Shown here one piece after another: positions 35,663 to 60,941 of a DNA stretch of 64,000 nucleotides. The notes beneath the pieces were generated by a model that was not told the DNA's origin, made no database searches, and saw only the letters and a list, made by a program, of their open reading frames with translations. The position numbers and the translations under genes were made by a program. The stretch comes from an uncultured bacterium (lineage in GTDB: Bacteria > Hydrothermota > UBA3072), in NCBI GenBank assembly GCA_964534175.1, contig CAZHNS010000009.1:460-64459 (forward strand). Reading direction: 5' to 3'. Position 1 is the first letter of the stretch. The number at the start of each line of letters is the position of its first letter.

Positions 35663-38600
35663 CTGAACAAAAGATTATTTGTATCGCTACTTTTTACCAT
35701 TTTCATAACTACCAATTCGGTTTTTGCCAGAGGTAATGAAAAAATCAAATTAACGGGTTTTCGAATCGAATCATCTAAAAAAAACGAGCCATCTAATAAT
35801 ATCGACCGTAAATCTAACCGAACAAAAATCCTATCTTCTCGTTTAGACAGACTTCACAAACTTTACACCGATAAGGGAGAATATATTCAGTTTGCCAAAC
35901 AATCCGACCTGCAACTTATCGAAGATAGAGTAGTTGTAACTGTTTTACCCCAACCCGGTATTACAACGGCAGATATAGATGAAAACAATCTAAAAGCTTT
36001 CGGCTCAAAGATTCAAGCAAAAGCAAAACACTCCATGAGAGTCGAAATACCAATAAGCGAGCTTGAGAATGTAGCAAACTCAATTAAAGAGCTCGCAGAA
36101 ATCATACCCCCTATGAAACCAAAAGAACACGCAGTAACCAGTGAAGGTGTTGCACTTATGAATGCCGACCATTGGCACTCAGTAGGTGATTCGGGAACAG
36201 GTGTTAAAGTAGCTGTTATCGATGGTGGCTTTATGTCCTTAACTGATGCGCAAACCGAAGATGACATACCATCATCTTATGTAAGTCATGACTTTTCCGG
36301 AACCGGGCTCGAGGCAGGTACGCCCCATGGTACAGCCGTAGCTGAAGCAATTTTTGATCTGGTTCCTAACGCAGAATTTTATTTATACAAGATAGCAGAT
36401 GGAACCGATCTTGAAAACGCAAAAGATTCCTGCATCAGTAATGGTGTCGACATCGTCAACCATTCAATGGGATGGTACAATGCCAGTTACTACGACGGCA
36501 CGGGGCTTATTTGTAATATTATCGATGATGCCATCTCCAACGGTATTTGCTGGGTCAATTCAGCAGGTAATGACGCAGAAATGCATTATCGTTCTGTTTT
36601 TGATGATACCAATAGAACACATAATTTCAGCGGCAGCGGTGGAAACATTAACTATTTTGGTCCCGGAGACGGATCCGCCTATGTCATCGATGCAGGGTCT
36701 AGAATCGATGTTTTTCTAAACTGGGACGCTTATCCAACTACCACGGAAGATTATGATCTGGCGTTATATTACTGGAGGGAAGCACCACCACCATCGCAAT
36801 GGATATTAGTTGACGCTTCCACCAATGATCAAACCAGCGGAAGCTGGCCATATCCTACCGAACAAATATCTTATGTAGCCGAACATACGACTCCATACGG
36901 TGTAGTTGTCTGGGAGGACTCGACCACCATGAATCATGACTTTACGCTTTTCAACTGGATAGCTCCTTTTAATTACCAGACCGCGTCGAGCAGCATCACA
37001 GATCCTGCAAGTGCAACAGACGTCATTTCTGTCGGTGCTATAGATAGAAATGACTATACAAGTGGTCCCCAGGAAGACTTCAGCTCTCAGGGACCTACAA
37101 CAGACGGAAGAACCAAACCGGATGTCGCAGCACCTGACAATTGTAATAGTTACGCTTACGGATATTGGTACGGCACTTCCCTATCATCCCCGCATACAGC
37201 CGGGGTCTGCGCTTTACTTAAATCACGATTCCCCGGATATAGTAATACTGAAATCCGAGATTATCTATATACGAATTGTACAGTTGATTTGGGAACCTTA
37301 GGAAAAGATAATATCTATGGCTGGGGAAAAGTCGAAATGCCGGACATTTCCTTAACGGTAACTTCTCCCAATGGCGGAGAAGATTTTCAGGTAGACAGTG
37401 TTCATAATGTTACCTGGACTTCAAGCGGTACAAGCGGAGGTGTCAAAATTGAATATTCTACCAACAATGGAACGAGCTGGGCGGACGTGATTGCGAGCAT
37501 TCCCGATACGGGGGTTTATCCCTGGACTATACCTGATACGCCTTCAGATAGTTGTCTTCTTCGGATAACCGACACAATTGGGAGCCCTTCGGATACAAGT
37601 GATGCTTTATTTACGATTTCCCCGATTCCGTTCATAACAGTTGCTACTCCCAACGGTGGAGAGGACTGGCAGGTAGCAAGCAGCCAAGACATTACATGGA
37701 CTTCGAGCGGTACAAGTGGGGGCGTCCGGGTACAATATTCGACCGACAGTGGCTCGAGCTGGTCGGACGTGATTGCGAGCATTCCCGACACCGGAGCTTA
37801 CTCCTGGACTATACCTGATACACCTTCAGACAGTTGTCTTGTGAGAGTTGCGGATACAAATGAAAGTCTCGCGGATACAAGTGATGCCATATTTACGATT
37901 TCCCCGATTCCGTTCATAACAGTTGCCACTCCCAACGGTGGAGAAAACTGGCAGGTAGCAAGCAGCCAAGACATTATCTGGACTTCAAGTGGTACAAGTG
38001 GAGGCGTCCGGGTACAATATTCGACCGACAGTGGCTCGAGCTGGTCGGACGTAATTGCAAGCATTCCCGACACCGGGGCTTATCCCTGGACTATACCTGA
38101 TACACCTTCAGACAGTTGTCTTGTGAGAATTGCCGATACAAATGGAAGCCTCGCGGATACAAGTGATGCCATATTTACGATTTCCCCTATCCCATACATA
38201 ACGATTACGGCACCAAACGGCAGAGAAGACTGGGGAAGAGGTTATAGTTATGATATTACATGGACTTCGGCTGGTACCAGTGGCGACGTCAGAGTCGAAT
38301 ATTCTATCAACAATGGGACAAACTGGTCAGACGTAATTGCCAGTATGCCCGATACGGGGGCATATCCCTGGACAATCCCCACTGATACAATTTCGGATAG
38401 TTGTCTTGTTAGAATATCCGATACGGATGGAAGTCCAGTGGACACAAGCGATTCCATATTTGCAATCGTATCTGTTACATCTATCCCTATACCTAAATTA
38501 CCCGAAGTTTATTCTTTTAATACAAAAGGAATCACCGCAGGAAATCTGTTTGAAATAAAATACGCTCTTCCCGAAAAAGCTAAGTTCAAACTTGAGGTAT

Positions 38601-38767
38601 ATGATATAAAAGGAACAAAAATAGAAGAGATTTCAGAAGAAAATCGAGCGGGCTTCTATTCAATGAAGATAAACATGAGTGGTAAACCTGCAGGTGTGTA
38701 CTTTATCAGAATGGAAGCAAATGGGAAAAAATTTACCAAAACAAATAAGGTTGTATTAGTAAGATAG
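35663..38767 (+). CDS. Secreted S8 (subtilisin-like) serine protease with four Ser/Thr-rich Ig-like repeats and a FlgD/T9SS-like C-terminal domain; predicted CTG start
   Basis: Catalytic triad VAVIDGG, PHGTAVA, YGTSLSSP. The frame is open for 124 codons upstream of ATG 36035 and encodes signal peptide (M)NKRLFVSLLFTIFITTNSVFA. SD AGGAGG 35651-35656; in-frame TAG 35645-35647; 1034 aa. Confidence 0.9.
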   Translation: MNKRLFVSLLFTIFITTNSVFARGNEKIKLTGFRIESSKKNEPSNNIDRKSNRTKILSSRLDRLHKLYTDKGEYIQFAKQSDLQLIEDRVVVTVLPQPGITTADIDENNLKAFGSKIQAKAKHSMRVEIPISELENVANSIKELAEIIPPMKPKEHAVTSEGVALMNADHWHSVGDSGTGVKVAVIDGGFMSLTDAQTEDDIPSSYVSHDFSGTGLEAGTPHGTAVAEAIFDLVPNAEFYLYKIADGTDLENAKDSCISNGVDIVNHSMGWYNASYYDGTGLICNIIDDAISNGICWVNSAGNDAEMHYRSVFDDTNRTHNFSGSGGNINYFGPGDGSAYVIDAGSRIDVFLNWDAYPTTTEDYDLALYYWREAPPPSQWILVDASTNDQTSGSWPYPTEQISYVAEHTTPYGVVVWEDSTTMNHDFTLFNWIAPFNYQTASSSITDPASATDVISVGAIDRNDYTSGPQEDFSSQGPTTDGRTKPDVAAPDNCNSYAYGYWYGTSLSSPHTAGVCALLKSRFPGYSNTEIRDYLYTNCTVDLGTLGKDNIYGWGKVEMPDISLTVTSPNGGEDFQVDSVHNVTWTSSGTSGGVKIEYSTNNGTSWADVIASIPDTGVYPWTIPDTPSDSCLLRITDTIGSPSDTSDALFTISPIPFITVATPNGGEDWQVASSQDITWTSSGTSGGVRVQYSTDSGSSWSDVIASIPDTGAYSWTIPDTPSDSCLVRVADTNESLADTSDAIFTISPIPFITVATPNGGENWQVASSQDIIWTSSGTSGGVRVQYSTDSGSSWSDVIASIPDTGAYPWTIPDTPSDSCLVRIADTNGSLADTSDAIFTISPIPYITITAPNGREDWGRGYSYDITWTSAGTSGDVRVEYSINNGTNWSDVIASMPDTGAYPWTIPTDTISDSCLVRISDTDGSPVDTSDSIFAIVSVTSIPIPKLPEVYSFNTKGITAGNLFEIKYALPEKAKFKLEVYDIKGTKIEEISEENRAGFYSMKINMSGKPAGVYFIRMEANGKKFTKTNKVVLVR
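37349..38475 (+). repeat. Four 282-bp tandem coding repeats (94 aa)
   Basis: PNG codons at 37367, 37649, 37931 and 38213 (exact 282-nt period); copies 2 and 3 are nearly identical. Confidence 0.92.
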
Positions 38768-42673: not shown

Positions 42674-44419
42674 ATGGTAAATTTTAAATTCAAGACTCTT
42701 CTAATCCTATTACTCTTCTTAATAGCTACTTCGTTATCTGCGGAAGAACGACCGGTAATACAATGGTCAAATACCTACGGTGAAGGAGTTGCTCGTTCGA
42801 TTCAGCAGACTTCCGATGGAGGGTTCATTGTCTGTGGCGATACCGCAAGCGGCTCATTTGATGATGCAAGAATACAAACGATTAAACTCAATTCATCCGG
42901 AGGAACAACATGGCGAAAAACTCTTTCTTGGGAAGGTGCATATGACTTTGGAAATGGGTTTTCCGTCCAAGAGACCTCTGATGGTAATTATATAGTCTGT
43001 GGACACTTAGGATTAAGGCACTTCCTGGCTAAACTGGATTCGGATGGAGACAGCGTTTGGACTGCCTTTCCAGAGGATTATAATGGATACAGTGCCACAG
43101 GGCATACAGTCCGTCAAACTTCGGATGGAGGATATATAAGCGTAGGAACAACTTGGTTAATGAGCGGCTTAGGCGGCGGGGTAATAACTAAGATATTTGT
43201 TGCAAAAACAAGCTCTCAAGGCGACACTTTATGGCAACGAAATTATTATCTTGCAGAAACAGGAATAAACGAAGGCTATTCAATTTTACAATCAGGAGAT
43301 AGTGATTATATTATCGCCGGTTATGCAACCAATCCTGATGACACAACAATTGACCGTGCTGTACTTTTCAAAATAGATAGTTTATCAATCTACGGTTGGG
43401 CCCCACCGGTATGGTATCAATGTTACGGATCAAGCGAAGCAAAGATTTTTTCAGTAATAAAAACATCTGATGGTGGATTTATAACGACAGCGGGAAAAAA
43501 CGGCGGAGATATTATAATCACAAAAACTAACTCAAGCGGGGACTCCTTATGGGCAAAGACATTTGATGGTTCTCAAGGACCTTTCTATGCCAGTGAAGAG
43601 AAAGCAGACGCCGGCGATCATTTGATTCAACAAACCACCGACGGCGGATTCGTCATAACTGGACAAAAAGATGGAGATGTCTATCTGTTTAAGATAGACT
43701 CAGATGGAGACACTCTATGGACAGGAAAATATGGAGATGGCTATGGACGTTCAGTTTATTGTACTTCAGACGGTGGATACGTTATTGCCGGAGAACAAAA
43801 TGGAGACTTTCTTGTTACAAAAGTAATTCCTTCATACTTATTGCTTCAGAACGACACAGTAGGAATAGGAGATACAAATAATTACGTCGCCAGAGATTCA
43901 ATTAAAGCAGCCGGAAATTCTACTTACTTTGTGATAGAAGGCAACGGTTCAACCGGCGGTTATTGCACAATGGAAGCCGGAATCCTGATTACACTAAAAC
44001 CGGGGTTCCAGGCACAAACAGGTAGTATCTTTAGCGCAATTATCAACACCTCATTAGGCTTATCATCGTATAAGAGTCTTCCAGGACTATCCTTCCCTGA
44101 GAATACTGAATCAGAGAAAGAGACTAAAGAGACTATTCCCAAAGTCTTCAGCTGCGCGCAGAACAAACCCAATCCCTTCACGCGTAATACAACCATTAAC
44201 TACGGATTGCCGAAGGATTCCGATGTTATTCTCACTGTCTACAACCTGGCAGGTCAGGCAGTTCGAACCTTGGTTAACGCAAACCAAACTGCAGGATTTA
44301 AATCGGTCATGTGGGATGGAAAAAACAGCATGGGTGCACATGTACCTAAAGGCGTATACTTCTACGTTTTCAAGGCGGGCGACTTTGAAAAACACCATAA
44401 GATGATATTACTTAAGTGA
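42674..44419 (+). CDS. Secreted beta-propeller repeat protein with 3-coathanger-stack-like domain and FlgD/T9SS-like C-terminal domain
   Basis: Repeated (Q/E)TSDGG(F/Y)I..G and GD(T/S)LW motifs; ARDSIKA...ITLKPGFQAQTGS; QNKPNPF..TTINYGL..YNLAGQ..WDGKN..GVYFY. Confidence 0.85.
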   Translation: MVNFKFKTLLILLLFLIATSLSAEERPVIQWSNTYGEGVARSIQQTSDGGFIVCGDTASGSFDDARIQTIKLNSSGGTTWRKTLSWEGAYDFGNGFSVQETSDGNYIVCGHLGLRHFLAKLDSDGDSVWTAFPEDYNGYSATGHTVRQTSDGGYISVGTTWLMSGLGGGVITKIFVAKTSSQGDTLWQRNYYLAETGINEGYSILQSGDSDYIIAGYATNPDDTTIDRAVLFKIDSLSIYGWAPPVWYQCYGSSEAKIFSVIKTSDGGFITTAGKNGGDIIITKTNSSGDSLWAKTFDGSQGPFYASEEKADAGDHLIQQTTDGGFVITGQKDGDVYLFKIDSDGDTLWTGKYGDGYGRSVYCTSDGGYVIAGEQNGDFLVTKVIPSYLLLQNDTVGIGDTNNYVARDSIKAAGNSTYFVIEGNGSTGGYCTMEAGILITLKPGFQAQTGSIFSAIINTSLGLSSYKSLPGLSFPENTESEKETKETIPKVFSCAQNKPNPFTRNTTINYGLPKDSDVILTVYNLAGQAVRTLVNANQTAGFKSVMWDGKNSMGAHVPKGVYFYVFKAGDFEKHHKMILLK

Positions 44420-44487: not shown

Positions 44488-44535
44488 AAAAAATCGGCTC
44501 AGGATTTCAATTGAGGAGTCCTGAGTCGATTCTCA
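44488..44535. terminator. 12-bp hairpin between convergent operons (terminator)
   Basis: ATCGGCTCAGGA (44493-44504) pairs with TCCTGAGTCGAT (44519-44530); the A-run on its left gives a U-tract on the minus strand. Confidence 0.75.
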
Positions 44536-44578: not shown

Positions 44579-45331
44579 TCAGCTGCCAGCCTTCTTTCCA
44601 ATGGCCTTAATTATACCCGTTGCGTTTGAGACCCAGTTTATACCCTTACACTTAAGTCTCTCCAAACTTGCGAATTTATTCAAACCTGTTTTCGCCGAAA
44701 GATTAAAAAGAGTATCAATCGTGTATACTCCCCAACGCCCAATAAGGTAAGGATTTTTTGTCTTAGACGGAGTAGAAACAAATGCCTTTTCGTAACCGAC
44801 TTCCCCGGCTAATTCACTTTCATCCCTTCTTATTCTACCAAAAGGATAGGAAAGATATTTGACTCTCTCCCCTGTTTTATCAGATATAGTTTTAAGCGAT
44901 ATCTCCATATCTTTTCTAACTAAATCCACTGGACTTCGTGAATAATCAGGATGAAGATGGGAATGAGAACCAATTGTTATACCGTATCTATGCATCTCTT
45001 TAATTTTGTTCCATGAAAGATGTGTAAAAGATTTCCCCAGTGTAACCTCCCAATCATTTCTCTTCCCCGCATATCCGGAAACCACAAATATTAAAGCAGG
45101 CACATTCTCATCTTTAAGCACAGGAAAAGCAAACTCATATAGATCGACAAAACCATCATCGAAAGTAATTAAAACTCCTGAATCTTCTTTGAAAAATTCA
45201 TGAGGCTTAAGAAATTTAAGACCTTTTCTTTTTAAAAATCTTATATGTTTTGCGAAAACATCCGGAAATACAATTGAACCGTATGGGGAAAAAGTCCTAG
45301 CTATATTATGGTAGAGAAGGATCGACTTCAT
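44579..45331 (-). CDS. Polysaccharide deacetylase (CE4/NodB, IcaB/PgaB-like)
   Basis: ILLYH, LITFDDG, GSHSHLH, YLSYPFG; start MKSILLYH at 45331. Confidence 0.9.
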   Translation of the reverse strand: MKSILLYHNIARTFSPYGSIVFPDVFAKHIRFLKRKGLKFLKPHEFFKEDSGVLITFDDGFVDLYEFAFPVLKDENVPALIFVVSGYAGKRNDWEVTLGKSFTHLSWNKIKEMHRYGITIGSHSHLHPDYSRSPVDLVRKDMEISLKTISDKTGERVKYLSYPFGRIRRDESELAGEVGYEKAFVSTPSKTKNPYLIGRWGVYTIDTLFNLSAKTGLNKFASLERLKCKGINWVSNATGIIKAIGKKAGS

Positions 45332-46394
45332 AATAGAAATCCATAATATCTTTTGCAACCACATCCCAGGAGTACTTGGCTGCTGTTCTAAGACCTCCCT
45401 TAATCAAACTTTTACTGAGGTTTTTATCTTTCAAAAGAGTTATAACTTTATCGGCTATATCTTTTGAACTCGCTGGGGTTACCAGTAATCCGTTCTTCCC
45501 GTCATCGATAACACACCTGTAACCTGGTATGCTTGAAGCGATTACCGGGGTTTCTGTAGCCATTGCCTCCAACAATACAATTCCAAAACTTTCTCCGCAA
45601 ATAGCCGGGGATACAAAAACCGAAGCGTGGCTAAATATTCCGGGTAAATCCGCAGGAGAAACAAACCCTAAAAACTTAATAGAATTCTTTACCTCAGAAG
45701 GTATATCCAGCTTCATATCTTTATAACCCCCGCCGACTACTGTAAGCTTCGCTTTTGGGAATTCCTTTTTTATACGAGGCAGAGCATCGATTAAAAACTG
45801 CAACCCTTTCCTCGGTTCTATTCTTCCGACAAACAAAATCTCAAAAGGATTTCTCTTTTTATCAACTGCTCTAAACCTTTGCCTGTCTACCCCGTTAGGA
45901 ATTATACGGTAATCTCCCGGGAAATACCTGGCAATGGAATCCTTCGCAGTAACAGAAACGGCAATCCTGCCGTCGATCTTATCGAAATAGTGTTTCAAAT
46001 AACCTTTGGAAATTTTATATAAATTAGAAGATTTAAAAGTTGGGTGAAATGTAAATATATTTGTTTTTCTCGAAACTTTAAGAGAAAGAAGGGGCAAAGT
46101 GGGAGCAATGATACCATGTATATGAATAACGTCATAATCATTAACAACACTGGAAAGCTTAGATAGATTAACCCAGCCGGTCATTCTCGCATTTGACTGG
46201 TTCATGGGAATAACGACAGAATTACCCAAACGTATAACTCTTCTTTCATCCGGTTTTAAATCCCCCTCGATATCAGCTGTAAGTATTGAAACCCCATGAC
46301 CCATATTTTCAAATTCGTTCGCGAGATGGTATATGTGCTCAGTAACCCCCCCGATATGAGGATAATAAAAATCTGAGACGAAAAGAATCTTCAT
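45306..46394 (-). CDS. GT4 glycosyltransferase, PimA-like (N-terminus resembles PIG-A)
   Basis: SDFYYPHIGGVTEHIYHL, HIHG..APTL, TFH, KIDGRIAVS, IPNGVD, EPRKG, GESFGIVLLEAMA; ATGA overlap with the upstream gene at 46391-46394. Confidence 0.88.
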   Translation of the reverse strand: MKILFVSDFYYPHIGGVTEHIYHLANEFENMGHGVSILTADIEGDLKPDERRVIRLGNSVVIPMNQSNARMTGWVNLSKLSSVVNDYDVIHIHGIIAPTLPLLSLKVSRKTNIFTFHPTFKSSNLYKISKGYLKHYFDKIDGRIAVSVTAKDSIARYFPGDYRIIPNGVDRQRFRAVDKKRNPFEILFVGRIEPRKGLQFLIDALPRIKKEFPKAKLTVVGGGYKDMKLDIPSEVKNSIKFLGFVSPADLPGIFSHASVFVSPAICGESFGIVLLEAMATETPVIASSIPGYRCVIDDGKNGLLVTPASSKDIADKVITLLKDKNLSKSLIKGGLRTAAKYSWDVVAKDIMDFYYEVDPSLP

Positions 46395-47230
46395 TTCCAG
46401 ATTCTCTGGAAAACAAACCATTGAAAAGGATACATTCTTATACTCCTCTCCAAAAGGTGTATAACTTCCTTTAATAATTCTTCAGACGAATCAAAATCCT
46501 CCGGATAAAGAGGCTTAAAAACTTTACCTAAATAACGCGGTGAATCAGGGTCGAGGGCAAGTACGCCCACAAGAACAGGCGCTCCCGTTTTCTTAGATAG
46601 AAAAGCTATACCCTTTGGTATCGATGCTTCGCGGTTAAAGAATTCAACGGTACTCCCCGAATTTAATATATCCCTATCCCCAATTAAAACAGCAATTTTG
46701 TTTTTCTTTAAAATTCTAATTAATCTAAATGGTAATCTTTTATCTTCAAGAGGCAGCAATTTGTTTCCGGAATGCGCCCTGTAACGGTTATAAAATCTGA
46801 AGAAATTCAGCCCCGGACCTTCAGTTTCCGCAACAGAATAAAGAGGAAGACCTAAAGTGGTAAGACAGATACCCGCCAATTCCATACCCCCTATATGACA
46901 TGAAACAAGAATTATCCCCTTCCCTTTACTCAATTCTTCAGTAAAATGATTGAATCCCTCTATTCTAGCCATCGACTTTATATATGATTTACTCATGTTA
47001 GGTATATTAAGAATATCACTATAGACTCTCAAATAATTGATAAAAACTTTTTTGATGTCTTTTTTTTCAGCCTTTCCCAGAACCGTAATTAGATTTTCTT
47101 TTATAATCGCTTTTCTTTCTCCTGCAAAATAAAACCAGAGAGTTCCGAAAATTTTTGCCAAAAACTCCCGAAACCAGGTGGGAGTAAAGCGCAAAAACTG
47201 AGTCATAAATAGCATAAAGATTTTTTTCAT
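46391..47230 (-). CDS. Lysophospholipid acyltransferase family, PatA/LpxL-like
   Basis: GIILVSCHIGGME (Hx4E), LIGDRD, VEFF..ASIPKG, YPFQWF. Confidence 0.88.
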   Translation of the reverse strand: MKKIFMLFMTQFLRFTPTWFREFLAKIFGTLWFYFAGERKAIIKENLITVLGKAEKKDIKKVFINYLRVYSDILNIPNMSKSYIKSMARIEGFNHFTEELSKGKGIILVSCHIGGMELAGICLTTLGLPLYSVAETEGPGLNFFRFYNRYRAHSGNKLLPLEDKRLPFRLIRILKKNKIAVLIGDRDILNSGSTVEFFNREASIPKGIAFLSKKTGAPVLVGVLALDPDSPRYLGKVFKPLYPEDFDSSEELLKEVIHLLERSIRMYPFQWFVFQRIWK

Positions 47231-47232: not shown

Positions 47233-47667
47233 TTAATAATCTGTAGAGCCAAATCCTCCATTTTCTCTCTTAGTCGAATTAAGCTCTTCTGTTTCTACCA
47301 AATTCACTTTCTCGACTTTAGTAATAATTAACTGTGCTATTCTATTCCCTTTTTTAATTTCAAAATCTTTTTTGCCAATATTAAAAAGAATAACTTTTAT
47401 TTCTCCACGGTAATCAGAATCTATTGTTCCCGGTGAATTTAATACTCCTATCCCGAATTTTGAAGCGAGACCACTTCTAGCTCTAACCTCACCTTCATAA
47501 CCACCAGGAATCTCAAGAGCAACGCCCGTAGAAATCATTTCAAAACCGCCTGAAGCTAATACACAATCCCGAGAAGCATACAAATCTAACCCTGAACTGC
47601 CTTCTGTTTGATAAACAGGAAGGGGCAAACTTTTATCCAATCTTCTTATTTTTATTTCTAAAGACAC
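47233..47667 (-). CDS. dut: dUTP diphosphatase
   Basis: GSSGLDL, ARSGLA, LNSPGTIDSDYRGE, RIAQL, RENGGFGST; GTG start. Confidence 0.97.
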   Translation of the reverse strand: MSLEIKIRRLDKSLPLPVYQTEGSSGLDLYASRDCVLASGGFEMISTGVALEIPGGYEGEVRARSGLASKFGIGVLNSPGTIDSDYRGEIKVILFNIGKKDFEIKKGNRIAQLIITKVEKVNLVETEELNSTKRENGGFGSTDY

Positions 47668-47726: not shown

Positions 47727-48896
47727 TCATTCTTCGTTAACCTGAGCTCCATGTAATCCCAAGTATTTATCAAGCGCATCTTGCAATATATCAAGACCTT
47801 CCTCCAGAATTTCGGGATTGAGATAACGATAATCAATTAAAATTTCTCCTTCATCTTCATATTGTTCGGAATGAAAGAAAACCGATGGGGCAACAAACAC
47901 TGTTCTCTTATCCCTATTATATTCGCAAAGTAACCACTCCACAAATGTATCGGCATTAGGTACAGGCAGTTTCAAAAACACAGAAGAAATACTGTTAGCA
48001 TAAGCTACAGAAACATCTTCTCTGCTCTCTATAAAATTCTGAATAATAGTCCTATTTTGTTCTATCTGTTCCAATCTATCGTGTAATATTTTAGAAGAGT
48101 CATTAAGAAAATTATCGATCAAACTAAGTTCATAAGGCGTCATCGGAAATAAATCGCTGGCAACTAACTCAATCTTCGGAGATAGGGTTTCGTGGAACAC
48201 AATTATAGTCAAATCTCCCATAGAAAAATCTCTTAAGAGACTGTTCACTCTGATTACCCTCTCATTATTAACAGAAATATCCTTCAAAAAAACCAGATTT
48301 TTAGTATCCTTCACCAGATGGCTGAGCGATTCATCAACAGCTAAAAATAACTGATAATTCCTAGAAATAAAAAGCATTCTTTCAAGGCTTTCTCTTGGAT
48401 AAAGAATGCTTCCCGAAAATCCGGGTTCAGAAAAATATAACAACTTTGTTCGTGGAGTCAAAGAATCTTCGATATCTCTTCGCAGGGGAATATCAAAATC
48501 TTCCGCAGAATTTGTCTCGATAATTTTTGCATTTAAAGAAAGAATATCAGTATATTGCTTAATAAAATAAGGGACCGGAGCAGGAATCAATATTTCATCT
48601 CCCACATCCGTAGTAGTAAAAAAAAGTAGGTAATACGCCGAAAACCTGTTGGGAAGAATCAGCAATTTATAATCATTTGAAATCCCCAAATACAATTTAA
48701 GCCTTCTTATGACCTCATCATTTGTGAGAGGCATAATATCACTCAAATGATGAGTGTTGATAGGATCCACAGAAAATAAATTTATAATTTGCACATCACG
48801 ATTTATAAAATAGGAAAATCTCTCTTTATAAAAATTAAATACGAAAGAATCGTATAAGGAAAATCTTCTCGAATTATAAATCTCACCAATTGACAT
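47727..48896 (-). CDS. Class I/II aminotransferase-fold protein with a degenerate active site (probable pseudoenzyme)
   Basis: GDEILIPAP, IEDSLTPRTK, AVDE and LPVPNADTFVEWLL..TVFVAP align with AspC-type enzymes, but the SxSK lysine, NPxNP and C-terminal R motifs are not recognisable. Confidence 0.7.
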   Translation of the reverse strand: MSIGEIYNSRRFSLYDSFVFNFYKERFSYFINRDVQIINLFSVDPINTHHLSDIMPLTNDEVIRRLKLYLGISNDYKLLILPNRFSAYYLLFFTTTDVGDEILIPAPVPYFIKQYTDILSLNAKIIETNSAEDFDIPLRRDIEDSLTPRTKLLYFSEPGFSGSILYPRESLERMLFISRNYQLFLAVDESLSHLVKDTKNLVFLKDISVNNERVIRVNSLLRDFSMGDLTIIVFHETLSPKIELVASDLFPMTPYELSLIDNFLNDSSKILHDRLEQIEQNRTIIQNFIESREDVSVAYANSISSVFLKLPVPNADTFVEWLLCEYNRDKRTVFVAPSVFFHSEQYEDEGEILIDYRYLNPEILEEGLDILQDALDKYLGLHGAQVNEE

Positions 48897-50118: not shown

Positions 50119-50269
50119 TAAATATAACCTATTTTAAAACAATGTGATTCAGAGGTTTCCCATAAAAAAGAACACCTAAAACCATTAATTTACTCAAGTA
50201 TAATAATGTCCTTAACAATATATGTCAATGGTAGAATGTAACATCTAAGAGTGTATAATCCTTTTTATA

Positions 50270-52678
50270 TCATTGCCTTTTTTTTAAAAGAAAAACCGCT
50301 GAAGTAAGAAAAATTATAACCCCTAGTAAACTTAATAAGGAGGCAATATTAAATACCCTGGACTCATAGACAAAACGCAACTCATGTTCTCCTTCCGGAA
50401 CAAAAACCCCGTAGAAAATGTAATTAGCTTTATATATTTTTTCTTTTTTACCGTCTATATAACACTTCCAATCCGGATGATAATTCTCTCGAATAATAAG
50501 AAAAGCCGTTTTACTGGTTTTAACCTCTAAAACCTTTTCATTTGCAATCATCCTAACAACATCAACATCTCCCTCGCCTTCTGAAAGGGTAATATCCGGC
50601 TTTTTCTCTAAAATAGCAATACTTCCCGGAATAAATTCCGGAGATAAAATCTCATTTAACACATCTTGAGCACTGTCAACCACCTTATACTCGTACATAA
50701 GAGAAGCTCTCGGCAAGAAGCTTTCATTTTTTAGAACTTGATACTCCCTTCCTGCAAAAGCAACATCAAAATTTGAATAGAAATCTCTCAACTCTTTTAT
50801 AACCTGCTTAACTCTTTCCGTGTAAGGAGTCAAATCTTCAGGAAGGCGAGGAACTATTAGGTATTTAACATTCAACATAGAGAGCGCATGAGGAAATTCA
50901 AAGAAATTGGGGGCACTAAACATTACACTTCCTTCGGCTCCAATAAATTTTTGATATCTACCGGGAGGATTTGGGCCATACCCGGCCACACTATACATAT
51001 CATGGTAGTGAAAATAACCACTTTTCGCCCATTTATAATTCTCGAATGGAAATATCCTATATAAACTTTTATCCTGTGAAATATATCTGGTGACATCATC
51101 CATAGAATAGTAATTCCGAGGATGAGGAGCCACATTGAGATATTTCTTATCCACAGACCACTGATCTGCAATAAGGACAAGGATTAACAGAGATATAGCT
51201 GCCTTGAATTCTATTTTTTTTATTATTACAGAATAGATTATGCCACCATTAATAATAAAAAGTAGCGTTGCCAACCACAGGCTTTTTTTCAGATTCACGA
51301 AATTCTTAGACATTACAGCAATTTTTTGCTGAAGGTTTTGCCTTCCAATCTCCGCCCAAGCCACAGAGAAATGATGCTTCATAAAATTCAAGACACCCCT
51401 ATCTCCTATATTTACAATAAGGGTCACAAACAATATTAAGCCCATCGAAACTAAAACATATAAGATTACTTTCTTCTTTTCCTCCTCGTTTCTATTCTTT
51501 AATTCGTATAAAGCCTCCGCTCCAAATCCGGCTAGCACTGCAATACCAAAACTGGTAAGAAAGAAAAACATCGATGGAGCCCTGAATTTCTTGGCCATGG
51601 GAACCAGATAATAATAGATTCTAAAAATCGGGGTATTTTTCCCCAGGGCAAGAATTAAAGTAATACCAGTGAACCAGGCGAAATATTTTATAAGACATCT
51701 TTTTTTTCTGTAAAAGAAGGCTAATCCAACCATCATTATTGGTAATATACCGAGATACCTGGAATCCAGTTTAAAGAAATTCTCTCCCCAGTAATTATCA
51801 AGTATACCAGAAAAATGGGGTGTTATCAGATTAAATAATTCCGCGGTCGGCATCGACCATGAAGTCGAGTATGCGTAACCTCTAGTCGCCCCCCTTGCCC
51901 CATAACTTAAGGACAAAGCAGGAGGAATCAACTTTATAGCAACAACCATAAAAAGAATAACTATACCGGTAAAGAAAAAACAGGATAATATACTCATTTT
52001 TTTTAATCCCATCTCTCCTCTTCTTCTAAAGATCTCATAGAGAAAGAACATGACTACCCCAATCATACTCCAGTAAGTAATTTGAATATGTCCAGCCAGT
52101 ATAAAAATCCCGGAAATCCCGCCAAAAATCAAAAAATCAGATAATCTCTTTCTTCGCATAGCTCTGGCAACGAAAAGAAAAGCAAAAGGTAAGAGCACCC
52201 CTCCAATCGTCCTACCTAAATGCCCTCCCTGAGTAGTTGTTATTATTTGACCAGCAAACATATAAGAAACTGCTCCAACCAGGGAAGAAAATTGGGATAG
52301 ATCAAATTCCCGCAATAATAGCCATATCCCCAATCCCGCCAGAAAGACATGAATTATAAACATAAAAGTCAATCCTAAATGAATCGGAAAAATCAGATAA
52401 ACCAAATTAAAAGGATATACTAAACCGCCGGCACCGCCAGTTGCGACTCTCGGCTGTCCGGAAAAATTGTAAGAATCCCACATGGGAAAAACGTGATGCT
52501 CTTTCAAATAACTTACCCATCCGTTAGTTCCCGTATATCCGGAAAGCAGATAATCTGAACCATATATCATTTTGGAAGGAGTCAAGAATCCAATAAAGTA
52601 TATTATCGATATTAAAAACAAAAAGATTATTATAAATAATTTTAATTTACTTTTATCTTTTAAAATTTTTCTATTCAT
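50270..52678 (-). CDS. YfhO family GT-C membrane protein
   Basis: PMWDSYNFSGQP, multi-TM core, KFRAP, SMLNVKY, FLPRA, ENYHPDWKCYIDGK..IYKANY.F.GVFVPEGEH. Confidence 0.9.
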   Translation of the reverse strand: MNRKILKDKSKLKLFIIIFLFLISIIYFIGFLTPSKMIYGSDYLLSGYTGTNGWVSYLKEHHVFPMWDSYNFSGQPRVATGGAGGLVYPFNLVYLIFPIHLGLTFMFIIHVFLAGLGIWLLLREFDLSQFSSLVGAVSYMFAGQIITTTQGGHLGRTIGGVLLPFAFLFVARAMRRKRLSDFLIFGGISGIFILAGHIQITYWSMIGVVMFFLYEIFRRRGEMGLKKMSILSCFFFTGIVILFMVVAIKLIPPALSLSYGARGATRGYAYSTSWSMPTAELFNLITPHFSGILDNYWGENFFKLDSRYLGILPIMMVGLAFFYRKKRCLIKYFAWFTGITLILALGKNTPIFRIYYYLVPMAKKFRAPSMFFFLTSFGIAVLAGFGAEALYELKNRNEEEKKKVILYVLVSMGLILFVTLIVNIGDRGVLNFMKHHFSVAWAEIGRQNLQQKIAVMSKNFVNLKKSLWLATLLFIINGGIIYSVIIKKIEFKAAISLLILVLIADQWSVDKKYLNVAPHPRNYYSMDDVTRYISQDKSLYRIFPFENYKWAKSGYFHYHDMYSVAGYGPNPPGRYQKFIGAEGSVMFSAPNFFEFPHALSMLNVKYLIVPRLPEDLTPYTERVKQVIKELRDFYSNFDVAFAGREYQVLKNESFLPRASLMYEYKVVDSAQDVLNEILSPEFIPGSIAILEKKPDITLSEGEGDVDVVRMIANEKVLEVKTSKTAFLIIRENYHPDWKCYIDGKKEKIYKANYIFYGVFVPEGEHELRFVYESRVFNIASLLSLLGVIIFLTSAVFLLKKRQ

Positions 52679-52919: not shown

Positions 52920-54239
52920 GTGCTTAAAGAGAATAAAAAAGACAGAGATATCAAAGGCGAAGGTGTAATAAGAGGTTCCATTTATATAATTATAGGGCAA
53001 GTAATAGCTGGGATATTCCTATTTTTATTTCAGATTTTAACGGGCAGGTGGTTGGGGGTGAAATACTATGGTATTCTTAACATACTCTACTCCTATATAT
53101 TAGTTTTTAACGTTTTTATGACCAATGGGGTAACACACGGGCTTACAAGATATATTTCTTTTTTCCAGGCAAAAGATTTAAAAAATAAGATAAAAGATAC
53201 AATTCAGATATCATCCTTAATATACTTGATTTTTATTCTATTTTTTTTATTGATAGCAATCATCTTTAGAAAAAAAATACTCAATAATTTCTTTAATAAT
53301 ATGGAAACACTATATTTCCAATTCATTCTGGGAGTTTTATCTCTTTCGTTATACAGCTTTTACGATGGGTTACTGAGAGGGAATAGAAGATTCTATATTT
53401 CTTCAATAGGTTTTGTAATAAAAGCCCTTTCAATGCTAATTATAGTTTTCTTAATAATACCATGTTTAAAACTTTTAAAAATTCATGCTGGATGGAGTTT
53501 TGTTATAGCCCCTATTATACCGATTTTTTATTTTAAAATGGTATTAAAAAATACAATTATTTCTCCGGATTTTAAAAACCCAAATGAATTTGATACTAAA
53601 ATTGTTAAGTTTATAATTATGAGCTGTATTATAGCTGTATTAAATACATGGATAGTAAGATCGGGTCCAATCCTTTTAAAAGTAGTAGGAAAAGCTAATT
53701 CGGATTCACTCGCCGGTTTATTCAGCGCCACTATGATGCCATTAAATTTTGTAAGAACTTTAGTTCTTGCATTTTTAGGAGCTCTTTTCCCAAATCTAAC
53801 AAGAGCATACTCTCTTAAGAATGAGAATTTAATAAAAAGATATACTTATAAAAGTTTAGGTGTAGTAATAATGTTAGTTGTATCTGTAACACTTTTTTAT
53901 TATTTCTTAGGCCCTCAAACAATTAAACTACTCTACGGAAAAGATTTTTCTATCTCTAGATCTACCGCGTTTATACTATCCCTTGCAATATCTTTACTAC
54001 TACTCGGAATGTTACTCTCCAGAATACTAATGGCAAGAAACACCCCACATGTCTCAGTAATTTCATTAATATTGGGAGTAACCGGGATGTTTACATTTCT
54101 ACATCTAAGAAACATGGAACCAATGGAACTGGTTTGCTTCTCTATACTTATTTGTAATACAATATACTTCGGAATCCAATCATTATATTTAACAATAATA
54201 AAAATAAGACATCTTAAACTAACAGCTCAACAAGAATGA
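52920..54239 (+). CDS. Oligosaccharide flippase (Wzx/MOP family)
   Basis: ~12-14 hydrophobic helices, LTGRWLG..YYG, LFPNL, LLYGKDF; GTG start. Confidence 0.85.
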   Translation: MLKENKKDRDIKGEGVIRGSIYIIIGQVIAGIFLFLFQILTGRWLGVKYYGILNILYSYILVFNVFMTNGVTHGLTRYISFFQAKDLKNKIKDTIQISSLIYLIFILFFLLIAIIFRKKILNNFFNNMETLYFQFILGVLSLSLYSFYDGLLRGNRRFYISSIGFVIKALSMLIIVFLIIPCLKLLKIHAGWSFVIAPIIPIFYFKMVLKNTIISPDFKNPNEFDTKIVKFIIMSCIIAVLNTWIVRSGPILLKVVGKANSDSLAGLFSATMMPLNFVRTLVLAFLGALFPNLTRAYSLKNENLIKRYTYKSLGVVIMLVVSVTLFYYFLGPQTIKLLYGKDFSISRSTAFILSLAISLLLLGMLLSRILMARNTPHVSVISLILGVTGMFTFLHLRNMEPMELVCFSILICNTIYFGIQSLYLTIIKIRHLKLTAQQE

Positions 54240-55447
54240 GAATTCTTTATATAACCACCGCTTTTCCAAGAAACTCCAACGATCCCATTACACCATGGTT
54301 AGTTAAAACAGTCACAATGCTAAACGAAAAGGGAATTAAAATAAATGTCTTTACATCTTCATATAAGGGCCTAATTTTCAACCGAATAAAGAACATCGAC
54401 GTTTTCCGATTTCGTTATTTTATAAAGTCTTTCGAGAGGTTAACACATGAAGAAATGGCTCTCGATAGAGTAAGAAAGGGCGGAATATATAAAATATTAC
54501 CTCTATTCTATATATTGTTTGGGATAATTGGAATAATTAAACATTGCAAAAAAGAAAAATATGATATAATACACGTTCACTGGCCATTTCCACATTTCAT
54601 TTTTGGGTATATTGCCTCAAGAATGCTTAGAGTTCCTCTTGTTTGCACATTTCACGGAGTCGGTATTCGTTTTATCAAGAAATCATCTATAAATCTGGAT
54701 TTTTTTCTTAACTGGATTATTAAAAAAAGTGATCTAATTACAGTAAACTCAACTCATACTGCTAAAGAACTCATCCCTTTCAACCCTAAAAATATATCTA
54801 TAATACCTTTCGGGGCTGCCGTGGAGCCTGAAGACATTTCAAAAAAAGAAAACATCTCGAAAGAAAATAACCACGATACAACGAAACTTCTATTTGTGGG
54901 AAGATTGGTTGAAAGAAAAGGCGTGGAATATCTCCTCCAGGCTGTAAAAAACTTAAAAATGAAAAAGAAAGTCAAATTAATAATAGTAGGCGAAGGTGGA
55001 CTAAAAGAAAGTTTATTAAAAAAGAGAAATCAATTGAAACTATCAGATAAAGATGTTAAATTTGCAGGAAAAATATCGGGGGGGAAATTAAACGAATATT
55101 ATAAAAACTGTGATATCTTTGTACTTCCGGCTATTATAGATTCAAAAGGGGATACTGAAGGTTTGGGAGTCGTTCTTCTTGAGGCATTGAGTTTTAAAAA
55201 GGCAGTCATTGCTTCAAGAGTTGGGGGCATCGTTGATATTATCAAAGATAAAAAAACCGGTTTATTAGTGAAAGAAAAATCTGCCGAAGAATTAGCCTCT
55301 GCCATTGAATTTCTCATAAACAATCCAAAAGAAAAAGAAAAACTAGCTAGAAAAGGGTATGAATTTCAAAAAAAGAATTTCAGTTGGGATAAAATTTTAT
55401 CCTCAATAATCTCACAGTATAAAAATATAACTTCTAAGACCGTTTAG
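54236..55447 (+). CDS. GT4 glycosyltransferase
   Basis: DIIHVHW, FVGRLVERKG, IVGEG, DIFVLP..TEGLGVVLLEA, IASRVGGI.DII. Confidence 0.95.
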   Translation: MRILYITTAFPRNSNDPITPWLVKTVTMLNEKGIKINVFTSSYKGLIFNRIKNIDVFRFRYFIKSFERLTHEEMALDRVRKGGIYKILPLFYILFGIIGIIKHCKKEKYDIIHVHWPFPHFIFGYIASRMLRVPLVCTFHGVGIRFIKKSSINLDFFLNWIIKKSDLITVNSTHTAKELIPFNPKNISIIPFGAAVEPEDISKKENISKENNHDTTKLLFVGRLVERKGVEYLLQAVKNLKMKKKVKLIIVGEGGLKESLLKKRNQLKLSDKDVKFAGKISGGKLNEYYKNCDIFVLPAIIDSKGDTEGLGVVLLEALSFKKAVIASRVGGIVDIIKDKKTGLLVKEKSAEELASAIEFLINNPKEKEKLARKGYEFQKKNFSWDKILSSIISQYKNITSKTV

Positions 55448-55458
55448 AATAAGACTTA

Positions 55459-56079
55459 TCAGTATTTAACAATATTTCCTCTACGCATAAAAAAATTCTT
55501 TAACCGTCTCAGAATCTTCCTTCCAGGTTTAGTGGGTTCCAGGTGATAATAATTCACCTTCGGGAAATCGGTATCAGGCACAGCTTTTCCAAGGAAAGGA
55601 CACAATTTTTCCCATCCGTCACCATTACAAATATCCATAATTAATAGATTCCCTCTATTTTTAAAAAAGTCTTTAACTTTTTGGTTATGCTCTTTGTAAC
55701 ATTTAAGAAATGTTTCTTCGGAGAAATGAGTAAGGCCTGAAAATATCTTGGTCATAATATATTTATTAGCTTTTTTCCAGGGAACCACAAATTTAAAATG
55801 TCTTCTGGCTGAATCTAACCACTTATTCTCTTCTCTCACTGTAAGGATAAATTTTGCATCAGGATATAATTCGTATAACTCTTTATATAAAAAAGCGATA
55901 GAACCTATAAATGCATCTCCTCTCTTCAGGAATTGAGAATTTTTAAGAATTTTATTCCTGTATTCCTGCGCTATCTCAACAGGATCATGAAATACCTTAA
56001 AATTAAGTATTTCCAATGCCAGAGCCAAACTGGAGGTAGCAGTCTTAGGATAACCTATTCCAAATGTTTTTTCACTCAT
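55459..56079 (-). CDS. Sulfotransferase (Sulfotransfer_4-like family)
   Basis: 5'-PSB loop GIGYPKTATSSL, PDAKFILTVR..W..S, DGWEKLCPFLGKAVP..FPKVN. Start ATG 56079 after GGAG (alternative 56091). Confidence 0.9.
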   Translation of the reverse strand: MSEKTFGIGYPKTATSSLALALEILNFKVFHDPVEIAQEYRNKILKNSQFLKRGDAFIGSIAFLYKELYELYPDAKFILTVREENKWLDSARRHFKFVVPWKKANKYIMTKIFSGLTHFSEETFLKCYKEHNQKVKDFFKNRGNLLIMDICNGDGWEKLCPFLGKAVPDTDFPKVNYYHLEPTKPGRKILRRLKNFFMRRGNIVKY

Positions 56080-56080
56080 T

Positions 56081-57193: not shown

Positions 57194-57197
57194 GAAA

Positions 57198-58757: not shown

Positions 58758-58763
58758 GGAAGG

Positions 58764-58791
58764 AATATAAAATTAACGATTGAAATGTCAA
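58764..58791 (-). promoter_or_regulatory. Promoter TTGACA-N16-TATATT, 6 nt from the ATG (apparently leaderless)
   Basis: TGTCAA at 58786-58791, AATATA at 58764-58769; ATG at 58757. Confidence 0.75.
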
Positions 58792-58865
58792 GGGTAGTAC
58801 AAAATGATATAATGCCTATCGTTTAAAACAAAGTAAGAATCTTAGATACAGAAATAATTTTGGAT

Positions 58866-60155: not shown

Positions 60156-60170
60156 TAAAATCTCCCTTAT

Positions 60171-60932: not shown

Positions 60933-60941
60933 GAAACTTTC

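Follow-up and report, generated by a model that had tools for sequence, protein, structure and literature searches.

Glycolipids of the PIM type are treated as a hallmark of Actinobacteria, and GPI-type glucosaminyl-inositol lipids as a trait of eukaryotes and archaea. In mycobacteria, PimA and PatA carry out the first steps of acyl-PIM synthesis and are encoded by overlapping genes in the order patA then pimA (Rv2610c-Rv2611c). At the start of the GPI pathway, PIG-A transfers GlcNAc to PI, PIG-L acts as the de-N-acetylase, and PIG-W as the inositol acyltransferase. Two bacterial operons direct the synthesis of amino-glycolipids, namely gpgSDF of P. aeruginosa for GlcN-PG (PMC12713373) and hexSDF of C. 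difficile for HNHDRG (PMC10128005); in both, the product of a cytoplasmic glycosyltransferase is a GlcNAc-lipid whose amine is unmasked by a deacetylase, and the operon also encodes a flippase (PMC12713373, PMC10128005).

Comparative genomics indicates that the PimA/PatA pair is widespread beyond Actinobacteria, with complete ino1-patA-pimA-pgsA clusters in Chloroflexota and Dormibacterota, and that a second, uncharacterised PimA branch occurs in WOR-3, TA06, and allied candidate phyla. Members of this branch have other partners (an LplT-like MFS protein and a predicted cytoplasmic CE4) and PIG-A-like active-site loops. The locus described here belongs to this second branch and lies on the minus strand of a 64-kb stretch of DNA (hereafter, the window) from candidate division WOR-3. 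As originally predicted, the host is a non-actinobacterial diderm, and the window encodes TonB receptors, an OEP, and T9SS cargo. The three genes of the locus encode a PatA-like acyltransferase, a PimA-like GT4 glycosyltransferase, and a CE4 de-N-acetylase, as first described. Judging from the sequences, the most likely product of the three enzymes is an acylated sugar-phospholipid akin to the PIMs of mycobacteria. Even if the operon is read conservatively, an acylated glyco-phospholipid that has so far gone unrecognised is predicted for the envelope of this uncultured phylum.

The first two genes resemble mycobacterial patA-pimA in family, order, and overlap, and their products share with PimA and PatA the GT-B GT4 fold, the EX7E motif, the His/acid charge relay, E149 and R164 of PatA, and the absence of TM helices. 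They differ in that pgsA and ino1 are not beside them, that residues diagnostic of the canonical PimA type are replaced in the GT4, that the host is a WOR-3 diderm, and that their partner is a CE4 gene and that of their relatives an MFS gene, neither of which is known to be part of the mycobacterial patA-pimA locus.

Gene layout and probable transcription unit

The original prediction of three coupled genes holds, as all of the reading frames overlap on the minus strand. The acyltransferase (279 aa) occupies positions 46391..47230, and its stop codon TGA (46393-46391) overlaps the ATG of the GT4 gene (46394-46392) in an ATGA arrangement, which places the GT4 start at 46394 (MKILFVSDFYYPH...) rather than at the longest-ORF start, 46421. 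The GT4 (362 aa; 45306..46394) ends with a stop codon at 45308-45306. The CE4 gene (250 aa; 44579..45331) most likely starts at 45331 (MKSILLYHNI) rather than at 45364, giving an overlap of 26 nt with the GT4 gene; this start is used by gene callers on public contigs (P0390, 250 aa) and is kept in relatives. Every motif quoted in the original prediction is present in the translations, including HIGGME (Hx4E) and GDRD in the acyltransferase, and EPRKG, GESFGIVLLEA, and KIDGRIAVS.

Upstream, on the same strand, a translationally coupled dUTPase gene (dut; 47233..47667; 180 bits to the NCBIfam dut model, above cutoff) ends 2 nt before the acyltransferase ATG (47230). It is preceded by an aminotransferase-like gene (48896-47727) and an M16 peptidase gene (50118-48883), both assigned from Pfam, NCBIfam, and synteny, which represent the upstream part of a pnp-M16-AT-...-CE4 block conserved in WOR-3, TA06, and other lineages. 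The dUTPase is part of this conserved housekeeping backbone and lies outside the lipid pathway. A promoter-like sequence, TTGACA-17-TATTAT (50200..50228, minus strand; 11/12 consensus matches), precedes the M16 gene and is regarded as a candidate only, since promoter-like sites in the region are no more frequent than the shuffled expectation. On the 3′ side of the CE4 stop, a hairpin followed by a U-run (44488..44531, minus strand; −15.6 kcal/mol, z −4.55) constitutes a candidate intrinsic terminator, and none of 200 shuffled sequences was equally stable. The transcription unit therefore probably comprises the M16, aminotransferase-like, dut, patA-like, pimA-like, and CE4 genes.

Homology and predicted activities of the encoded enzymes

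The claim that the first two genes match mycobacterial patA-pimA was borne out, as both products are true homologues, encoded in identical order, with PatA and PimA as their best solved relatives. The acyltransferase belongs to the LpxL/HtrB/PatA family (Pfam Lip_A_acyltrans, E 1e-34). Among NCBIfam models, NF005919 (PIM acyltransferase) fits it best, with 113.9 bits and so below the equivalog cutoff of 209, and its best PDB relative is PatA (5f2t/5oce; 64.7 bits, E 1e-16; ~25% identity to the mycobacterial enzyme), compared with 31 bits for LpxM. The catalytic H126 is retained as the His of HIGGME, the E200 charge-relay acid is represented by the Asp of GDRD, and the contacts of PatA with the mannose sugar, E149 and R164, are both kept. 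H284, the inositol contact, is replaced by Phe, a position that also varies among the PatA-like proteins of the canonical clusters. These acceptor contacts (E149 and R164 for mannose, H284 for inositol) derive from docking (PMC4792965). As it has no TM helix, the protein is probably a peripheral enzyme of the membrane. Precedent in the LpxL/PatA family is for O-acylation, and the gene set therefore implies no specific role for a free amine.

PimA is also the closest solved relative of the GT4, at full length (2gej/4n9w; 177 bits, E 4e-51, 35% identity) and 110 bits ahead of the next, MshA, and an AF2 model (pLDDT 90.4) finds PimA 4n9w and 2gej as its best Foldseek matches (TM 0.79-0.80). The protein has the EX7E motif of GT-B/GT4 enzymes and their Gly-Gly pair, Arg, and Lys for phosphate binding, and it retains G15, G16, H118, R196, E199, R201, K202, E274, S275, F276, and E282 of PimA. 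Like the acyltransferase, it lacks a TM helix, consistent with a pair of peripheral membrane enzymes. At the sugar-contact positions, the GT4 has the same residues as PimA (E274, S275, F276, and I278), and this motif is also common to GlcNAc-using GT4 enzymes; the sequence is thus compatible with either Man or GlcNAc as the donor sugar. D253 and K256, considered as guanine markers, also vary within the canonical PimA type and so carry no information on the nucleotide.

After PimA, the next-best structural matches of the GT4 model are BshA and MshA, which are UDP-GlcNAc enzymes, and the pairing of a GT4 with a deacetylase follows the logic of mycothiol and bacillithiol synthesis. The enzymes might accordingly be imagined to place GlcNAc on a soluble small molecule and to unmask its amine for use in a low-molecular-weight thiol or a comparable metabolite. 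We consider this very improbable, as the sequence scores of MshA (68 bits) and BshA (28-42 bits) are far from the 177 bits of PimA, the known mycothiol and bacillithiol deacetylases are of the LmbE type and not CE4, no ligase gene was found nearby in Pfam scans of the window, and such a route has no place for a PatA-type lipid acyltransferase or a lipid-flippase-like MFS protein.

The third enzyme is an intact CE4 of the GlcNAc-deacetylase type that, judging from its sequence, is predicted to face the cytoplasm. It matches Pfam PF01522 (Polysacc_deac_1; E 1e-22) and, by sequence, 4wcj and 6dq3. The protein has a long C-terminal helix, and its AF2 model (pLDDT 91.7) has PplD 6dq3 as best Foldseek match (E 1e-17, TM 0.74/0.81), followed by IcaB and PgaB. 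These three are all GlcNAc de-N-acetylases, with which it shares the permuted CE4 organization and the catalytic residues, including the N-terminal LxYH His. The catalytic and metal-binding set is complete (Asp-Asp, His-x3-His, the LxYH His, and Arg), and H8, D58, D59, H123, H127, P163-F164-G165, R199, and D206 are invariant across 35 homologues. The known substrates of PplD, IcaB, and PgaB are polymers or a linkage unit located beyond the cytoplasmic membrane, whereas the window CE4, having no signal peptide, is not predicted to be exported. Hydropathy analysis of the WOR-3 copies revealed neither an N-terminal TM segment nor a signal peptide, and in copies from TA06 and others the N-terminal TM segment is followed by Arg/Lys, for which reason the CE4 domain is predicted, from hydropathy, to be cytoplasmic. 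Activity on periplasmic peptidoglycan or PNAG, which the original prediction had weighed, is therefore unlikely.

The part of the original prediction that assigned a deacetylase to the pathway stands as regards the type of enzyme, and its coupling to the other two genes is ambiguous. The same CE4 subfamily is found directly 3′ of pnp-M16 in several lineages without adjacent PimA or PatA, so that the adjacency may be inherited synteny. In addition, some lineages with the second PimA type have no adjacent CE4, and in some other WOR-3 lineages dut lies between patA and pimA, so that the gene order of the block as a whole may be inherited rather than functional.

Two types of PimA-like glycosyltransferase

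The PimA-like family divides into two types. Type I is found in Chloroflexota, Dormibacterota, and Actinobacteria, and Type II, which includes the window GT4, in WOR-3, TA06, Stahlbacteria, Hydrothermae, and Eisenbacteria. In all of the 52 Type I loci, pimA is accompanied by ino1, patA, and a CDP-alcohol phosphatidyltransferase gene (PI-phosphate synthase), whereas none of the 32 Type II loci shows ino1/pgsA linkage, and no inositol genes were found within 8-10 kb of the Type II genes at these loci. The Type I clusters of Chloroflexota and Dormibacterota, which probably account for the inositol mannoside lipids that have been reported in Thermomicrobia, encode PimA-like proteins 37-43% identical to the window GT4 along with PatA-like partners; they differ from the window locus in always including MIPS and a CDP-alcohol phosphatidyltransferase and in keeping P8, Y9, P14, G64, and E95.

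Type II loci carry an MFS gene, with or without patA and CE4, of which CE4 is often adjacent; the MFS gene lies 3′ of the GT4 gene in 22 of the 32. The MFS protein scores 83 bits, below cutoff, against NF006386, a model that matches it through the MFS portion of Aas-type fusions, and 49 bits against LplT, with a generic H+ antiporter model as top match. No flippase-like gene was found in the 64-kb window. The patA/pimA/CE4 trio is kept across WOR-3, even in lineages whose GT4 identity has dropped to 44%, and also occurs in TA06 with a changed gene order.

The five residues invariant in Type I are all replaced in the window GT4, by D8, F9, I14, Q, and G, respectively, and all CE4-linked Type II proteins depart from Type I at positions 8, 9, 14, 64, and 95. 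In PimA, P8, Y9, G64, and E95 belong to segments for which modelling predicts PI or PIM binding, P14 touches guanine in the crystal structure, and Y9 is reported to be critical for activity (PMC9202250). PIG-A-like states take their place in Type II, namely D8, F9, a non-Pro residue at 14, Q64, and, at 95, a small residue. Together, these sequence comparisons suggest that Type II is a branch of the PimA family with distinct specificity.

The resemblance of the GT4 N-terminus to PIG-A noted in the original prediction is real, and the PIG-A N-terminus quoted there is correct; the human PIG-A sequence compared here has 100% identity and coverage to its database entry, P0270. The N-termini SDFYYPHIGGVTEHIYHL and SDFFYPNMGGVESHIYQL are identical at 12 of 18 positions, and SDFxYPxxGGVxxH and NQS motifs are common to both proteins. 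At full length the GT4 shares 25% identity with human PIG-A (78.6 bits), and the likeness is systematic across the Type II subgroup, with median scores of 86-90 bits compared with 65 for Type I. Membership of the GT4 in the PIG-A family itself was ruled out: the PIGA domain PF08288, present in all PIG-A matches, was not detected at E 0.01, and the protein falls outside the PIG-A clade. In the phylogeny, NJ bootstrapping united Type I and Type II as a PimA-like clade to the exclusion of PIG-A in 91% of replicates and recovered a grouping of PIG-A with Type II in 0/200, which places the GT4 with PimA and not with PIG-A.

This placement bears on a canonical PIM-type interpretation, which we regard as possible but unlikely. 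Here the GT4 would be a true PimA orthologue that transfers mannose from GDP-mannose to an inositol phospholipid, as PimA does to the inositol 2-OH of PI, the PatA-like enzyme would palmitoylate the mannose 6-OH to give an Ac-PIM1-like lipid, and the CE4 would be a syntenic bystander of the ancient pnp-M16...CE4 block with another substrate. No other characterised relative comes near PimA in similarity, its mannose-contact residues are conserved, these proteins are already named PimA by automatic JGI annotation, and the monophyly of the two types and the occurrence of CE4 without PimA are consistent with this interpretation, as is the presence of a MIPS and PIP-synthase-like gene pair alongside the operon in one MAG (see below). 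The change of every Type I-specific invariant, including the Y9 that is reported to be critical for PimA (PMC9202250), and the contrast in ino1/pgsA linkage argue against it. It also leaves a cytoplasm-facing deacetylase, whose reading frame overlaps the GT4 or PatA gene, without a substrate.

Acceptor lipid and proposed pathway

The original prediction noted that no pgsA is adjacent to the operon, and this holds throughout the 64 kb. Scanning every large ORF against Pfam revealed no CDP-alcohol phosphatidyltransferase or inositol-1-P synthase in the window, nor did a motif search for a pgsA-type gene, which did find its actinobacterial positive control. The search for these enzymes was positive in a related MAG, CBFDSV01, which encodes the operon M16-AT-AT-dut-patA-pimA-CE4 on CBFDSV010000001.1 (with a PimA-like protein 58% identical to that of the window) and a CDP-alcohol phosphatidyltransferase and MIPS pair on CBFDSV010000041.1. 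The MIPS scores 565 bits, and the best NCBIfam models of the phosphatidyltransferase are archaetidylinositol-P synthase and PIP synthase, both below cutoff. The same pair is present in a named WOR-3 MAG (L217). This co-occurrence, which comes from one binned MAG outside the window's own clade, makes an inositol lipid acceptor plausible.

Alternatively, the pathway could be free of inositol, an option that we judge unlikely, with the GT4 resembling GpgS or alpha-monoglucosyl-DAG synthase in its reaction and using phosphatidylglycerol, diacylglycerol, or a lyso-lipid as acceptor, and the PatA-like enzyme acylating the sugar or re-acylating a lyso-form delivered by the LplT-like MFS protein. It would agree with the lack of inositol genes around Type II genes and in the window, with the resemblance of the MFS protein to LplT and to the MFS part of Aas fusions, and with NCBIfam matches of the GT4 to alpha-monoglucosyl-DAG synthase (full-length, 101 bits) and, more weakly, GlcNAc-PG synthase (GpgS, NF053787; 55.7 bits). 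These scores fall far short of the respective cutoffs (400 and 480) and are also lower than the score against PimA, the two nearest characterised relatives, PimA and PIG-A, both use PI, and the inositol-lipid gene pair accompanies the same operon in a MAG. Precedents, both for this reading and for the one favoured below, exist in gpgSDF (PMC12713373) and hexSDF (PMC10128005), whose layout is matched by the window GT4 and CE4, along with the MFS gene of relatives. The window GT4 is, however, not a GpgS orthologue, GpgD belongs to COG3233 and the window CE4 to PF01522, the flippases are of the YbhN/MprF type rather than MFS, and neither operon contains an acyltransferase.

We tentatively favour a membrane-surface pathway for an acylated glyco-phospholipid that is homologous to the first PIM steps, represents a separate Type II branch, and leans towards a HexNAc sugar with deacetylation by the CE4. 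[quoted passage not shown] The PatA-like enzyme, whose catalytic His/Asp pair and sugar contacts are observed, would then move a fatty acyl chain from acyl-CoA or acyl-ACP to an inferred position on the sugar. The sugar may be an N-acetylhexosamine from which the co-transcribed, cytoplasm-facing CE4 would remove the acetyl group, yielding an acyl-glucosaminyl rather than an acyl-mannosyl phospholipid. In most relatives, the LplT-like MFS protein encoded beside the GT4, whose gene is absent from the window, could flip the product to the outer leaflet. The enzymes of the operon are predicted to be soluble, expressible, and directly testable. Use of the lipid by the GT-C proteins of the window (YfhO, TMEM260-like), also part of the original prediction, had proximity as its basis and is not included in this scheme.

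If Type II enzymes transfer GlcNAc to an inositol lipid, they would be the first enzymes to give bacteria an equivalent of the GPI core and would bear on the divergence of PimA and PIG-A. The operon and the eukaryotic/archaeal GPI start share a logical triad of glycosyltransferase, de-N-acetylase, and acyltransferase, and differ in that PIG-A has PF08288 and a C-terminal TM helix, both absent from the window GT4. PIG-L is of the LmbE type rather than CE4, and PIG-W, a polytopic acyltransferase of the membrane, is not of the LpxL/PatA type, so any likeness would be convergent for two of the three steps. It is conceivable, though doubtful, that WOR-3 and related phyla make a GPI-core-like lipid, an acylated glucosaminyl inositol phospholipid, in which case the GT4 would keep PIG-A-like acceptor and donor loops within the PimA family, the cytoplasm-facing CE4 would replace PIG-L, the PatA-type enzyme would replace PIG-W, and the MFS flippase would export a possible anchor for surface glycans. 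Such a lipid would put a PIG-A-like state, with GlcNAc transfer, at the root of the PimA family. As the inositol-lipid synthase of the related MAG matches archaetidylinositol-P synthase best, the lipid could sit on an archaeal-type backbone.

Gene layout and protein identities

The 279-aa PatA-like acyltransferase (47230-46391, minus strand) begins 2 nt past the dut stop codon and is followed on the same strand by the 362-aa GT4 glycosyltransferase and a 250-aa CE4 deacetylase, which most likely starts at 45331 (MKSILLYHNI) and overlaps the GT4 end by 26 nt. The GT4 start was set at 46394, and not at the longest-ORF start of 46421, because the acyltransferase TGA overlaps the GT4 ATG as ATGA. 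The same starts are used by public gene calls (P0390) and by relatives. A promoter-like site is present upstream of an M16 peptidase gene, and a stable hairpin followed by a U-run lies 3′ of the CE4 gene; the transcript likely comprises the M16, aminotransferase-like, dut, acyltransferase, glycosyltransferase, and deacetylase genes. The aminotransferase-like gene (47727-48896, minus strand) has only a weak match to the Pfam domain Aminotran_1_2 (E = 1.5e-3, short of the gathering score), whereas the copies in relatives match this domain well; it could be degenerate or diverged.

The acyltransferase is a Lip_A_acyltrans protein (Pfam) that scores highest in NCBIfam against the PIM acyltransferase PatA (113.9 bits, below the cutoff of 209). 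PatA is also its best solved relative (64.7 bits vs. 31 for LpxM), and the acyltransferase retains the catalytic His and the block-3 acid as well as two docked sugar contacts. Among solved structures, the GT4 is closest to M. smegmatis PimA (177 bits and 35% identity over the full length), with MshA the next GT4 enzyme in the ranking at 68 bits. Its AlphaFold model (pLDDT 90.4) is closest in fold to PimA (TM 0.8), then to BshA and MshA, and orthology to GpgS was ruled out on NCBIfam score. All motifs quoted in the original prediction are present in the translations. The best supported core of the pathway, rated very probable, is the synthesis of an acylated glyco-phospholipid by this PimA/PatA-type pair at the cytoplasmic leaflet; transfer to a soluble acceptor is highly improbable.

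The CE4 model (pLDDT 91.7) is closest in fold to PplD, IcaB, and PgaB, and the full catalytic set is invariant over 35 homologues. The protein has no signal peptide, and hydropathy profiles place basic residues after the N-terminal TM helix in those homologues that carry one, so the catalytic domain should face the cytoplasm. A role in deacetylating PNAG or peptidoglycan in the periplasm was rejected, since export signals are missing throughout the subfamily.

Two types of PimA-like clusters and their relation to PIG-A

An exhaustive search of the PimA-like family recovered 967 cluster representatives (E ≤ 1e-30), and the 80 loci recovered when a profile was run against a single genome of each species were classed together with loci found earlier. 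Two branches are told apart by their gene neighbours. Type I (n = 52 loci; Chloroflexota, Dormibacterota, an Acidoferrum MAG, and Actinobacteria) has pimA near ino1, which encodes inositol-1-phosphate synthase (MIPS; ~60% identity with M. tuberculosis Ino1), a CDP-alcohol phosphatidyltransferase gene, and either a single patA or two. Type II, to which the GT4 belongs, is found in WOR-3, Stahlbacteria, TA06, Hydrothermae, and Eisenbacteria; automatic pipelines already give proteins of this kind the label PimA. An MFS transporter similar to LplT and to the MFS portion of Aas-type fusion proteins is encoded 3′ of pimA in 22 of the 32 Type II loci, often with patA and CE4 alongside. This partner is absent from the window and from the loci of close relatives, a clade that carries patA-pimA-CE4 without MFS. 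Searches of the literature turned up no description of PimA/PatA systems from WOR-3, nor of a division into Type I and Type II.

Complete ino1-patA(-patA)-pimA-CDP-alcohol phosphatidyltransferase clusters (loci L082-L149, e.g. L099, L101, and L147), often with two PatA paralogues, are widespread in Chloroflexota and Dormibacterota and also occur in the Acidoferrum MAG. Therefore, a PIM-type pathway exists well outside Actinobacteria. Literature searches returned nothing relevant on PimA/PatA outside Actinobacteria or on PIMs in Chloroflexi; diol-PI-mannoside lipids have reportedly been found in Thermomicrobia.

An NJ tree separates the whole PimA-like family from all outgroups, PIG-A included, in 91% of bootstraps, with Type I monophyletic in 72% and Type II forming a grade. 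The nearest outgroup in the point tree is PIG-A together with a Halapricum locus (L067), but in only 46% of bootstraps; a basal position of Type II within the family is a tentative reading. Residues P8, Y9, P14, G64, E95, and R222, invariant in Type I, all differ in the CE4-linked Type II proteins; human PIG-A has D8, F9, and Q64 as in Type II, lacks proline at 14, and carries a small residue at 95. In PimA, the residues lining the modelled PI/PIM site are 8-10, 59-70, and 95-99, guanine is in contact with P14, and activity reportedly depends critically on Y9 (PMC9202250).

Type II proteins score higher than Type I against PIG-A, and the window GT4 aligns with it over the full length at 25% identity; this GT4 has no PIGA domain in Pfam scans and no TM helix. 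The PIG-A peptide quoted in the original prediction is exact, and a full human PIG-A sequence matched a database entry (P0270) at 100%. Two candidate markers were uninformative: PimA D252, D253, and K256 (S, P, and L in the window GT4) were dropped as a GDP-versus-UDP marker because they vary widely in Type I enzymes encoded beside ino1 and pgsA, and PatA H284, an inositol contact considered as an acceptor marker, is variable in both types. We conclude that the GT4 probably works like a PimA/PIG-A-type lipid glycosyltransferase, and it should not be classed as a strict PimA orthologue or as PIG-A.

Inositol-lipid genes in related genomes

The closest loci to the window belong to MAGs of candidate division WOR-3, and outer-membrane and T9SS features are encoded in the window. 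As had been noted from the sequence, no pgsA is adjacent: Pfam scans and a relaxed regular expression found no CDP-alcohol phosphatidyltransferase anywhere in the window (a strict expression missed the positive control, which the relaxed version recovered). Pfam scans likewise found no MIPS in the window. The MIPS motif GDDIKSQxGAT, written as a DNA pattern with third positions biased to A/T, matched a named WOR-3 MAG (L217) and a second locus (L208). Both MIPS score 532-565 bits (NCBIfam), and immediately upstream of each is a CDP-alcohol phosphatidyltransferase of 187-190 aa, for which the top NCBIfam models are archaetidylinositol-phosphate synthase and PIP synthase, just below their cutoffs. 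The pair (5591-7257 in L217, 1080-2745 in L208) lies between rsmI and tmk in L217 and has tmk on its 3′ side in L208; for its synthase, archaetidylinositol-phosphate synthase (143-162 bits against a cutoff of 180), rather than the bacterial PIP synthase, is the top-scoring model.

A related operon, L154, reads M16-AT-AT-dut-patA-pimA-CE4 (AT, aminotransferase-like) and encodes a GT4 58% identical to that of the window. An exact 60-mer of its pimA-like gene maps to CBFDSV010000001.1, from the same MAG as L208 (CBFDSV010000041.1), so the operon and the inositol-lipid pair occur together in one binned genome. For the lineage, an acceptor of the inositol phospholipid type is therefore plausible, though not proven for the window's own clade. 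No inositol genes were found near pimA at any of the 32 Type II loci, and literature searches returned nothing relevant for WOR-3 with phosphatidylinositol or inositol. On balance, we slightly favour an inositol phospholipid as the acceptor, and consider a non-inositol acceptor unlikely.

The deacetylase and other genes of the window

The patA/pimA/CE4 trio persists through several rearrangements, and the CE4 reading frame overlaps GT4 in the window and patA in TA06, both of which count for coupling of the CE4 to the pathway. So does the expectation that a cytoplasm-facing CE4 of the GlcNAc-deacetylase type needs an intracellular or membrane substrate. Conserved adjacency as proof of membership is weakened, however, because pnp-M16-CE4 occurs without PimA: the subfamily lies directly 3′ of pnp-M16 with no adjacent PimA or PatA in L152, L156, and L157, and close to this block in L151 and L155. 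In L153 it adjoins UbiA, 6.6 kb from a Type II-like GT4, and some Type II lineages have no adjacent CE4. The order pnp-M16-AT-dut...CE4 looks like an old housekeeping backbone with patA, pimA, and MFS interleaved, and adjacency alone is therefore weak evidence. A canonical Ac-PIM1-like lipid, with the CE4 as a bystander, is rather unlikely.

The version to which we commit, if with some doubt, is that the sugar may be a HexNAc deacetylated by the CE4. The gpgSDF (PMC12713373) and hexSDF (PMC10128005) operons are experimental precedents for a GT-deacetylase-flippase amino-glycolipid system, although their components are not orthologous to those of the window. The full GPI-core-like product, an acylated GlcN-inositol lipid, is unlikely; interest would rise sharply if UDP-GlcNAc were the donor.

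Cytoplasm-facing CE4 proteins are encoded with rpsO-pnp-M16 in uncultured lineages (L151, L152, L155, L156, and L157 at 7001-7780), directly 3′ in several. The order rpsO-pnp-M16-CE4 is an old conserved neighbourhood and recalls the B. subtilis arrangement pnpA-ylxY(CE4)-mlpA(M16). A UbiA-family prenyltransferase is encoded beside CE4 in TA06 and another lineage (L068, 14316-15284; L153, 5741-6697), whose best NCBIfam matches, none of them reaching cutoff, are to generic prenyltransferase models and to those for chlorophyll synthase.

Elsewhere in the window, the genes at 52920-63038 form a set for a glycan or glycolipid that is sulfated: a Wzx-like flippase, two GT4 genes, a Sulfotransfer_4 protein, TauE, two alkaline-phosphatase-superfamily "Phosphodiest" proteins, and CysN/CysD-like sulfate-activation genes. 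The window also encodes two membrane proteins of GT-C-like type, one from the YfhO family immediately 5′ of the M16 operon (50270-52678, minus strand) and one TMEM260-like (8587-11259, plus strand). They had been proposed as possible users of the glycolipid as an anchor, but proximity is their sole link to the glycolipid genes. Genes at 36035-38767 and 42674-44419 (plus strand) and at 2857-4455 (minus strand) encode large secreted proteins with C-terminal sorting domains of the T9SS type; the 910-aa one among them contains four nearly identical repeats of ~95 aa each.
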